Below are positions 41,589-43,351 of a stretch of 64,000 bases of DNA, piece by piece. Positions within the stretch are counted from its first letter, which is position 1. Every line of letters begins with the position of its first letter. A model generated the notes under the pieces. That model was given only the letters and a program-made list of their open reading frames with translations, was not told the origin of the DNA and did not search any database. The stretch lies in the NCBI RefSeq assembly GCF_003018255.1, contig NZ_CP027440.1. One strand, 5' to 3'. Made by a program: the position numbers and the translations under genes. Source of the DNA: Escherichia coli. Its GTDB lineage: Bacteria > Pseudomonadota > Gammaproteobacteria > Enterobacterales > Enterobacteriaceae.

Positions 41589-41876
41589 TCACCAGGCCAT
41601 CTGGCTGGAGTGCTTAACCGTAAGTCTGACGAAATCAGTATAGTCAATGAGAATGATATCGTTCGAAATTTGACCAGCCAAACCGCGGGCAATAAGGTCT
41701 TCGTTCAGGGCATAGACCTTAATGGGGGCATTACGCAGACTTTCAAGGTAGCGGTTACCGTCAACTGCGGCAGTTACACCATCTTGCAATAATAGCAGTT
41801 CGTCGCCCTCACTTAGCAGGCGCAGCAGCGCAGCAAAATCCGTCAGCCAGGGTGAACGATGTAATGTGTGCAGCAT
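41589..41876 (-). CDS. tusB: Sulfurtransferase complex subunit TusB
   Basis: ORF track 95 aa. Confidence 0.9.
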
Positions 41877-41883
41877 AAACGCC

Positions 41884-42243
41884 TCAAAACCTCAAAATAA
41901 CATCGTAGTTGGCGAGTTCGCGGCGTAAGGCATCTGCTTCGAGCGGCGTGGCTTCGACAACAAAGGGTGTCTGCGGATCTAACCCGCGTTCGCGCAGTGA
42001 AGCCGCACAAACCCAGCACTGTTCAATGTCGTACAGACCCAACAATTTAAAAGTGGCGATGTAATCACGCGCCAGCACTGCATCGGGCTTTTGTCCTGGC
42101 AGCAGCTGAAAAACGCCATCAGCAATAAAGAAGACGGCCAGATCGTCAGTTAATGCGGAAGTTGCCAGTAAAGCATCTAAACCTTCCCGACCAGCAGCTG
42201 TACCATGAGGCACAGTAGAAAAAACAAACGCAATTCGTTTCAT
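41884..42243 (-). CDS. tusC: Sulfurtransferase complex subunit TusC
   Basis: ORF track 119 aa. Confidence 0.9.
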
Positions 42244-42629
42244 CAGAACTGTACCACCCTGTCACAGGTCAGCGAGGCTTCCGCCAGCGCGCCAAGTCCG
42301 CTTAAGGTAAATCCCGGCTGAAGGTTTGACGAAGCCAGCCCCAGTCTTCCGGCCTCCGTTTCATCGACGATACCGCGGCGTAACGCTGCCGCTACGCAGA
42401 TATTCAGCGCCACACCATGTTGCGCATTCAACTGTTGCCAGCAGCGCACAAGGTCAAATTCATCGCTTGCCGGTGAGGTCAATTGGTTAGCGTTATAGAC
42501 CCCTTCCCGATAAAAAAAGACGCTGCTTAACTCATGGCCTTCTGCAATCAGCGCCTGCGCAAACTGAAAAGCACTACTCGCCTGTTGCGTACCGTATGCT
42601 GGCCCGGTCACCACGATGGCAAAACGCAT
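42243..42629 (-). CDS. tusD: Sulfurtransferase TusD
   Basis: ORF track 128 aa; 1-nt overlaps with tusC and yheO. Confidence 0.9.
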
Positions 42630-43351
42630 TACTTATCTTGCCCCTGGAAATCACCGCTCTTGAACTGGCGGATGTAGAGATAGACAGTGTGTTTGGAGAT
42701 GTTCAGGCGGTCAGCAACCTGGTTGATCGCATCTTTAATATCGAAGATCCCTTTCTCGTAGAGATTCAGCACGATCTGACGATTTTTGGCGTTATTAGAA
42801 ACATTGCGATCGGCATTCACTTCTTCGATGGTGAACTCCAGCGTTTGGGTAACCAGATCTTCAACAGAAGAGGCAAAGTTGACGCTTGAACCGACATCCG
42901 GGGTTTCTGGCGGCACAAAGGTGCTCATAATCTGCGAGAAGGGAACATCAAGATTCATATTGATGCACAGCAAACCAATTACACGCTGTTCGCGGTTACG
43001 AATCGCGATAGTCAGGGACTTCATTAATACGCCGCTTTTGGCGCGAGTAAAGTAGCATTTAGAAACGCTGCTATCCGCTCCCGTCATATCGTGCAGCATA
43101 CGTAGCGCCAGGTCGGTAATTGGCGAACCAATCTTCCGGCCTGTATGTTCACCGTTAGCAATGCGAATGGCTGAACATTTTAGATCCTGCAAAGAGTGCA
43201 AAACGATTTCACAGTGGGAGCCAATAAGCATCGCTAACCCGTCCACCACCGCTTCGTAGGATTTCAGAATATCAAAATCGGTCTGGTCGAAAGGACGTTG
43301 ATCCAGTAAATCCAACTCACTGGTTTCGTTGGTTAAAAGCGACCTGGACAT
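42629..43351 (-). CDS. yheO: Putative DNA-binding regulator YheO
   Basis: ORF track 42629..43363 begins at a GTG; ATG at 43351 (MSRSLL...) preferred, with AGGA Shine-Dalgarno 12 nt upstream. C-terminal HTH-like segment. Confidence 0.82.

Follow-up and report, generated by a model that had tools for sequence, protein, structure and literature searches.

Introduction

Among the described systems, the closest to the locus studied here is the yheO-tusDCB unit of Escherichia coli K-12 with the str promoter downstream of it, both recorded in RegulonDB and EcoCyc. We analysed a window of 64,000 nucleotides (nt) of E. coli DNA (RefSeq assembly GCF_003018255.1, contig NZ_CP027440.1), and here we describe the junction in this window between tusB, the last gene of the unit, and rpsL, the first gene of the str operon. 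The window carries the same genes in the same order with the same promoter, and the coordinates correspond one to one: it aligns to K-12 MG1655 without indels, and a window position plus 3433089 gives the position in NC_000913.3. The genes of the strain and of K-12 are identical in kind, with only point substitutions elsewhere in the region. In addition, 2.7 kb around the junction were 100% identical to many E. coli chromosomes and were found in 5425 of 5426 complete genomes. The str promoter is said to have been sequenced by Post et al. in 1978.

The operon name yheO-tusDCB and a constitutive promoter of its own have been published (PMC3946193). Furthermore, the tus locus itself is in the list of operons for which SMRT-Cappable-seq (SMRT, single-molecule real-time) gave an extension, where it reaches from yheO-tusDCB to rpsL-rpsG and is not singled out (PMC6131387). 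The operon, the str promoter, the read-through transcript and the RNA 3′ end discussed below are all in published E. coli resources and are already known. A literature search found no paper discussing the tusB-rpsL junction.

We found that a conserved hairpin followed by a U-tract, with an RNA 3′ end mapped on it, stands between the str promoter and rpsL. Taken together, the locus is probably an ordinary tus operon with a leaky hairpin terminator in the str leader, and str is driven mostly by its own promoter.

The str promoter and the spacer after tusB

All features described here lie on the minus strand. The str operon is preceded by a sigma-70 promoter with the −35 element TTGACA at 41566-41561, just where an initial annotation of the window had put it, a 17-nt spacer and the −10 element TAAAAT at 41543-41538, and it matches the consensus at 11 of 12 positions. 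However, the same annotation had given about 63 nt between the tusB stop codon and the −35 element, and the actual distance is 22 nt (41588-41567). This spacer holds a conserved A/T-rich sequence (GTATATTTC) at the position of an UP-element, and GTATATTTCTTGAC is unchanged from Escherichia through Xenorhabdus and Hafnia. Since 22 nt leave no room for one, there is no hairpin between the tusB stop and the −35 element, and yheO-tusDCB has no terminator of its own ahead of the next transcription unit. The earlier statement that no terminator separates tusB from the promoter is thus literally true, but it is misleading, for the hairpin and U-tract are located just past the −10 element, before rpsL. 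This gene (S12; 41089-41463, ATG at 41463, from the open reading frame (ORF) list and RefSeq) is the first gene of the str operon and begins 125 nt 3′ of tusB, and RefSeq has no annotated feature between the two. The junction is therefore tighter than had been described and is not free of a terminator, a correction that carries little weight for biology at large.

A promoter pattern of this kind, exact or with one mismatch, is matched once in the 64 kb of the window, where 0.33 matches are expected, and at least one appeared in 28 of 100 shuffles. The match by itself is unremarkable and at chance level. The promoter is taken as real because of where it is located, because more than 50 leader variants conserve it and because a primary 5′ end is mapped to it. 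It was also kept in all rpsL-linked matches of the metagenome scan that used the promoter pattern.

As a separate observation, a promoter-like sequence TTGGCT-17-TATCAT (9 of 12 positions) is located inside tusB at 41653-41681, about 65 nt before the stop. Such 9/12 matches inside tusB are at chance level in the scan, and an RNA running from this one to 41504 would be about 140 nt long.

The leader hairpin and the mapped RNA 3′ end

The hairpin begins 4 nt past the −10 element. It is a stem-loop GCGUCCUCAUA-UUG-UGUGAGGACGU at 41534-41510 with 11-12 pairs including G-U, and its whole sequence is GCGUCCUCAUAUUGUGUGAGGACGU. The U-tract UUUUAUU (41510-41504) is located directly 3′ of the stem. Hairpin and U-tract together (41534-41504) lie between the −10 element and the rpsL ATG, within the first ~30 nt of the str leader. 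The stability of the stem-loop is −16.1 kcal/mol (z = −6.2), and none of 200 shuffles was equally stable, as expected for the stable, G+C-rich stem of an intrinsic terminator.

Term-seq placed an RNA 3′ end at K-12 position 3474593 on the minus strand, 41 nt upstream of rpsL, with the class ‘orphan’ and scores of 142130 and 154106 (Adams et al. 2021, PMC7815308). According to the flanking sequence printed there, this position is the final U of UUUUAUU and corresponds to 41504 in the window. The end is thus 7 nt past the Watson-Crick stem and within the U-tract in vivo, where an intrinsic terminator would leave it, at about 7-9 nt from the stem. It was called in two of the three condition sheets, apparently those for LB at optical density (OD) 2.0 and for M63. 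No 3′ ends were called by Term-seq within yheO, tusD or tusC, and the SMRT-Cappable-seq tables that we examined contain no termination site at 3474593.

In addition, two further Term-seq 3′ ends were seen at window position 41385 (K-12 3474474), 78 nt inside rpsL, and at 40991 (K-12 3474080), on the rpsG start codon. Position 40991 falls at the end of the intercistronic region between S12 and S7, on which S7 is known to act. The dependence of the 41504 end on conditions could reflect either regulation or peak-calling against very high str coverage.

The str transcription start and its effect on the fold

SMRT-Cappable-seq reported a primary 5′ end of the str unit (b3342, b3341 and b3340) at K-12 position 3474617, that is window position 41528, with 160 and 368 reads in two tables (Yan et al. 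2018, PMC6131387). Judging by promoter geometry, G 41532 is the more likely start; it is the 6th nucleotide past the −10 element and a purine after a pyrimidine. The method trims 5′ poly-C, clusters starts within 5 bp and size-selects molecules of more than 1 kb (PMC6131387). Because of this trimming and clustering, and because the RNA would begin with GUCCU, the reported 41528 may be shifted. We therefore use a start zone of 41528-41532, based on the SMRT-Cappable-seq data and the promoter geometry. The files examined from two further data sets, Cappable-seq 2016 and Kim 2012, have no entry for this locus.

The position of the start has a strong effect on the calculated folds of RNA ending at 41504. 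When the 5′ end lies upstream of the promoter, the best fold has −16 to −19 kcal/mol and its stem abuts the U-tract. For a start at 41532 the value is −12.7 kcal/mol and for 41530 it is −7.5 kcal/mol, in both cases with the stem set back from the U-tract. For a start at 41528 it is −1.3 kcal/mol, with essentially no stem. These calculations predict that the strength of the terminator would depend on where the transcript starts. Furthermore, the geometry of a 5′-terminal stem-loop, with the hairpin no more than about 2-4 nt from the 5′ end, fits starts from 41532 to 41530 and fails for the reported 41528.

Read-through and its weight for str expression

SMRT-Cappable-seq lists the RegulonDB operon b3346, b3345, b3344 and b3343 as extended to b3342 and b3341 (PMC6131387, supplementary file 5). 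The rule for an extension is at least one full-length primary transcript that spans the known operon and the added genes. An RNA molecule carrying yheO-tusDCB-rpsL-rpsG exists, with these genes co-transcribed on one molecule in at least one read, and the read-through into the str genes that the initial annotation had predicted is real. It is leaky, however, and not unopposed: the idea that nothing stops the tus transcripts is contradicted by the conserved hairpin with its U-tract and by the Term-seq 3′ end at 41504. The genes from yheO onwards into str are not a single operon, since a promoter with a mapped 5′ end and a hairpin with a mapped 3′ end lie inside the region and blocks placed upstream are tolerated.

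The evidence for this tolerance comes from a genome-wide dCas9 screen, in which guides against tusBCD were tolerated and were among those enriched after lambda infection, while rpsL was among the most dCas9-sensitive essential genes and one of the few sensitive even to template-strand guides (PMC6242692). Since a dCas9 roadblock in tusBCD is tolerated, the cell is evidently not starved of S12 by it. We infer that tus read-through is quantitatively unimportant for str expression, because str has a strong promoter of its own and CRISPR interference (CRISPRi) blocks in tusBCD are tolerated. The initial annotation had further suggested that read-through couples the expression of the sulfur relay with that of translation factors. 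This is not borne out, given the separate str promoter with its mapped 5′ end and the different responses of tusBCD and of the hypersensitive rpsL to dCas9.

Conservation across Enterobacterales

Homologous loci were collected by exact-protein look-ups with S12 and TusB representatives and by a metagenome scan with the conserved promoter pattern, and 52 distinct str-leader variants were obtained. A contig scan with TusB gave only three loci, of which two were usable. The order yheO-tusDCB-rpsL-rpsG-fusA is kept in Pectobacterium, Xenorhabdus and Hafnia. In Buchnera and two other reduced genomes, tusDCB-rpsL is kept and yheO is absent. In one locus (L020), a DsrE gene and tusB precede rpsL, and the spacer measures 545 nt. 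In two loci with distant TusB homologues (L021 and L022, 37-38% identity), tusDCB has a gene of the DsrC/TusE family after it in place of rpsL and a Bax1-I family gene before it in place of yheO. Thus, the tus-str link is specific to Enterobacterales.

In most leader variants, 21-23 nt separate the tusB stop from the −35 element. A hairpin is present in all 52, starting 5-8 nt past the −10 element and having −9 to −19 kcal/mol when each sequence is folded separately. We aligned the arms according to the minimum-free-energy partners of each sequence, which makes pairing 100% by construction, so that only the counts of changes on both sides of a pair carry weight. Such changes were found at 5 of 10 pairs, for instance U-A, C-G and U-G at position 10 and A-U and G-C at position 12, and the number of cells changed on both sides was 34, against 7.2 ± 2.0 in shuffles. 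MAFFT alignment of the raw leader variants followed by RNAalifold found no structure, because the loops differ by about 13 nt in length and the 3′ arms were misaligned. The stem is followed by a U-rich tail, (G/A)UUUAU(U/C)A, in 50 of the 52 variants. The hairpin is under selection, and the U-tract is mostly but not always kept.

The two variants without a U-tract are Xenorhabdus-like (L016 and L036). L016, from Xenorhabdus bovienii, has at 1789-1870 a 74-nt spacer with a weak hairpin and a U run (AAATACCT...AGGTATTTT) ahead of the str promoter, and the tail of its leader hairpin is GAGGAUAAAAUCC. We considered a division of labour in which a leader without a U-tract goes together with a separate tusB terminator. 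This fits L016, but it is weakened by L036, which has a 20-nt spacer, no U-tract anywhere and no upstream hairpin, and we did not retain it. In two other variants (L053 and L078), the usual spacer of 21-23 nt is replaced by a structured insertion (...GGGATCCCGATGAGCTTACCCAGGTAAGTGAACCGGGTGAAC...), giving spacers of about 130-150 nt. This insertion resembles an ERIC/IRU enterobacterial repeat.

Proposed mechanism and alternative explanations

According to the favoured explanation, polymerases coming from tusB cross the str promoter and then meet the hairpin and U-tract. The tus transcripts would end partly at 41504, if the 3′ end there is of tus origin and arises by intrinsic termination, and the remaining polymerases run into rpsL-rpsG and give the minor yheO-tusDCB-rpsLG transcript. 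The str mRNA would come overwhelmingly from the str promoter, as suggested by the quality of this promoter, its mapped primary 5′ end and the CRISPRi tolerance of tusBCD. Because the start site would be at the foot of the hairpin 5′ arm or just inside it, the hairpin probably doubles as the extreme 5′ stem-loop of the str mRNA.

In a more specific version of this scheme, the tus terminator would have the str promoter nested within it, an arrangement in which it acts on upstream transcripts only. We put this version forward tentatively and regard it as rather unlikely. The closing pairs C41533-G41511 and G41532-C41512, which bring the stem to the U-tract, are at or upstream of the str start, and this geometry is conserved across Enterobacterales, as seen in the distances from stop to −35 and from −10 to hairpin. 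If it were true that the str start lies inside the 5′ arm of the terminator, the locus would offer a clean example from nature of a terminator by which upstream transcripts alone are stopped, and a weak operon would be insulated from one of the strongest promoters of the cell without attenuating that promoter. Such a compact insulation design would be of interest for operon architecture and synthetic biology.

Several observations weigh against the favoured explanation. The U-tract is imperfect (UUUUAUU), and it is weaker still (AUUUAUC) in many relatives; the tail UUUUAUUA has 6 U in 8 nt, and the relatives mostly have AUUUAUUA or AUUUAUCA. A consensus terminator scan of the sequence made no call at the leader hairpin, probably because two U's of the tract are taken up when the stem is extended by G-U pairs. 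L016 and L036 keep the hairpin without a U-tract; thus, the conserved feature is the hairpin and not necessarily termination. In addition, the 3474593 end was uncalled in the first Term-seq sheet, which is that for LB at OD 0.4 judging by the order in the caption and the extra Rho-score columns. Term-seq also cannot separate the possible sources of the 41504 end, namely tus transcripts, short RNAs from the str promoter and exonuclease trimming to the hairpin. The read-through evidence, with its criterion of at least one read, gives existence and no fraction. Finally, the exact str start is uncertain within 41528-41532, being drawn from one data set and promoter geometry.

The reading of the initial annotation, in which yheO-tusDCB and rpsL-rpsG-fusA-tufA form one unopposed unit that couples tRNA 2-thiolation to translation factors, possibly under YheO control, is very unlikely in our judgement. 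It can draw on the hairpin-free stretch from the tusB stop to the −35 element, on the full-length yheO-to-rpsG transcript on record and on the tusDCB-rpsL neighbourhood kept across Enterobacterales, including Buchnera. However, a hairpin with a U-tract and a mapped 3′ end stands between the promoter and rpsL, the str promoter is near consensus and has a primary 5′ end mapped to it, and the cell tolerates dCas9 blocks in tusBCD. As to YheO, it is a transcription factor validated by ChIP-exo (chromatin immunoprecipitation with exonuclease digestion); its targets reported in the literature are ackA and ldhA, the latter repressed by it, and we found nothing in the literature that links it to str. 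Moreover, yheO is missing from the loci of Buchnera and other symbionts that keep tusDCB-rpsL. A stronger competitor is that the hairpin serves mainly as a 5′-terminal protector of the str mRNA against decay by RppH and RNase E, with the U-rich tail and the 41504 end being incidental products of weak termination or exonuclease stalling. The hairpin stands at the expected 5′ end of the transcript in all 52 variants, its stem covaries, and it is retained where the U-tract is lost. Nevertheless, a start at 41528, if correct, would leave the str mRNA without a hairpin (−1.3 kcal/mol), the closing pairs C5-G and G6-C, which are at or upstream of the likely start, are kept in 46 and 42 of the 52 variants, and the U-rich tail is kept in 50 of them. 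We consider this account a serious possibility, though short of probable. A role as 5′ stabiliser agrees with the data, and the hairpin may have it alongside termination.

The hairpin could also be a regulated attenuator of str itself, at which polymerases from the str promoter stop at about +25 to +29, more so in slow growth or stationary phase, and so lower ribosomal protein synthesis. For many other bacteria, predictions of attenuators ahead of rpsL have been published (PMC2965389), and growth-phase-dependent premature rpsL 3′ ends, with short rpsL transcripts specific to stationary phase, were reported in enteropathogenic E. coli (PMC10687069). The 41504 end, called in what appear to be the LB OD 2.0 and M63 sheets and not in that for LB OD 0.4, would agree with such a behaviour. 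In addition, the 41504 RNA is hinted to be abundant, because the 3′ end of the fkpA terminator was uncalled in Term-seq although fkpA is better expressed than tus. On the other hand, a transcript of about 29 nt shows no evident alternative anti-terminator fold, and the strength of the hairpin drops fast for starts at or after 41532. Rfam gave no family match in 41463-41600 even at E ≤ 1, so no rpsL leader family was recognised there, and Term-seq may be inefficient at capturing an RNA of 25-29 nt. A regulated attenuator is thus unlikely. We return to the explanation by an ordinary tus operon with a leaky terminator, which we prefer.

Neighbouring genes and leaders

The genes follow each other in the direction of transcription as fkpA, yheO, tusD, tusC, tusB, rpsL, rpsG, fusA and tufA. 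The first gene of the unit, yheO (43351-42629; RefSeq b3346), was identified from the ORF list and from Pfam on identical loci and encodes a DNA-binding regulator of 240 aa with PAS_6 and HTH_22 domains. The three tus genes were supported by the ORF list, the sequence, RefSeq and Pfam. They are tusD (42629-42243, DsrE family), tusC (42243-41884, DsrE family) and tusB (41876-41589, DsrH family, stop codon TGA at 41591-41589). The chaining of these genes that the initial annotation had described was confirmed by the sequence and RefSeq: tusD overlaps the yheO stop by 1 nt (TAATG), tusC overlaps the tusD stop by 1 nt (TGATG), and a gap of 7 nt separates tusC from tusB. Furthermore, the three adjoining genes carry PF02635, PF02635 and PF04077 by Pfam on identical proteins, as expected for a TusBCD sulfur-relay operon, and the RefSeq names agree.

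The promoter of the unit is located in the fkpA-yheO spacer. A table from genomic SELEX (systematic evolution of ligands by exponential enrichment) gives a constitutive sigma-70 promoter TGGAAA-16 nt-ATTAAT (PMC3946193), and we located this sequence in the window at 43453-43426. Thus, yheO-tusDCB is an ordinary, translationally coupled sigma-70 operon.

The yheO leader (43352-43410) was also examined. About 60 nt before the ATG are near-invariant in Escherichia-, Salmonella- and Citrobacter-like sequences, whereas the neighbouring region of the fkpA terminator diverges. The leader has a long-range helix (GAGCCUGCC...GGCAGGCUC), which more distant relatives such as L083 retain with altered bases. 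The leader also has a small hairpin, which includes the Shine-Dalgarno sequence (GCUCCUGAAAAGGAGU) and is separated from the ATG by U8, and CCUGAAAAG is present twice as a direct repeat. There was no Rfam match and no Term-seq 3′ end in this leader. It may be a translational operator or an attenuator of yheO-tusDCB. We also considered the small hairpin with U8 as a terminator. This is not supported, as its z is −1.2, no Term-seq 3′ end is found and only Escherichia-, Salmonella-, Citrobacter- and Klebsiella-like sequences keep the U run.

Upstream of the unit, the fkpA terminator (43479-43509) is a strong hairpin with a U-tract, and its end at 43479 corresponds to the SMRT-Cappable-seq 3′ end 3476568. 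The Rfam matches below threshold in the region, among them STnc240, rnk_pseudo and OrzO-P, are all located on this terminator, whose generic shape accounts for them. Read-through from fkpA to yheO is also listed (PMC6131387).

Comparison with known systems

In concept, the closest analogue of the tus/str junction is the overlap of the frd terminator with the ampC attenuator in E. coli, which was reportedly described by Jaurin and Grundstrom in the early 1980s. In both cases, the downstream promoter would stand at the end of the upstream operon, and one hairpin in the downstream leader would serve both units. However, the ampC promoter is said to be inside the frdD coding sequence, with the hairpin well inside the ampC transcript, whereas the str promoter is in the 22-nt spacer, and its start would be at or inside the 5′ arm of the hairpin. 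For E. coli, terminators have also been described at which read-through varies with the start site of the transcript (PMC6131387).

Hairpins resembling a terminator recur upstream of rpsL in bacteria, as in the predicted rpsL-leader attenuators (Naville and Gautheret 2010, PMC2965389) and the rpsL leaders of Pseudomonas and Rickettsia in Rfam. Those leaders belong to other genera and have anti-terminator alternatives, whereas the E. coli element has about 30 nt and no visible alternative fold.

The str hairpin also resembles the 5′ untranslated region of ompA, in that a stable hairpin stands at the first nucleotides of an abundant mRNA. Emory, Bouvet and Belasco reportedly showed in 1992 that 5′-terminal stem-loops with no more than 2-4 unpaired 5′ nucleotides stabilise E. 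coli mRNAs such as ompA. The str hairpin differs from that of ompA in its trailing U-tract and its mapped 3′ end, and the stabilisation of the rpsL mRNA is only putative.

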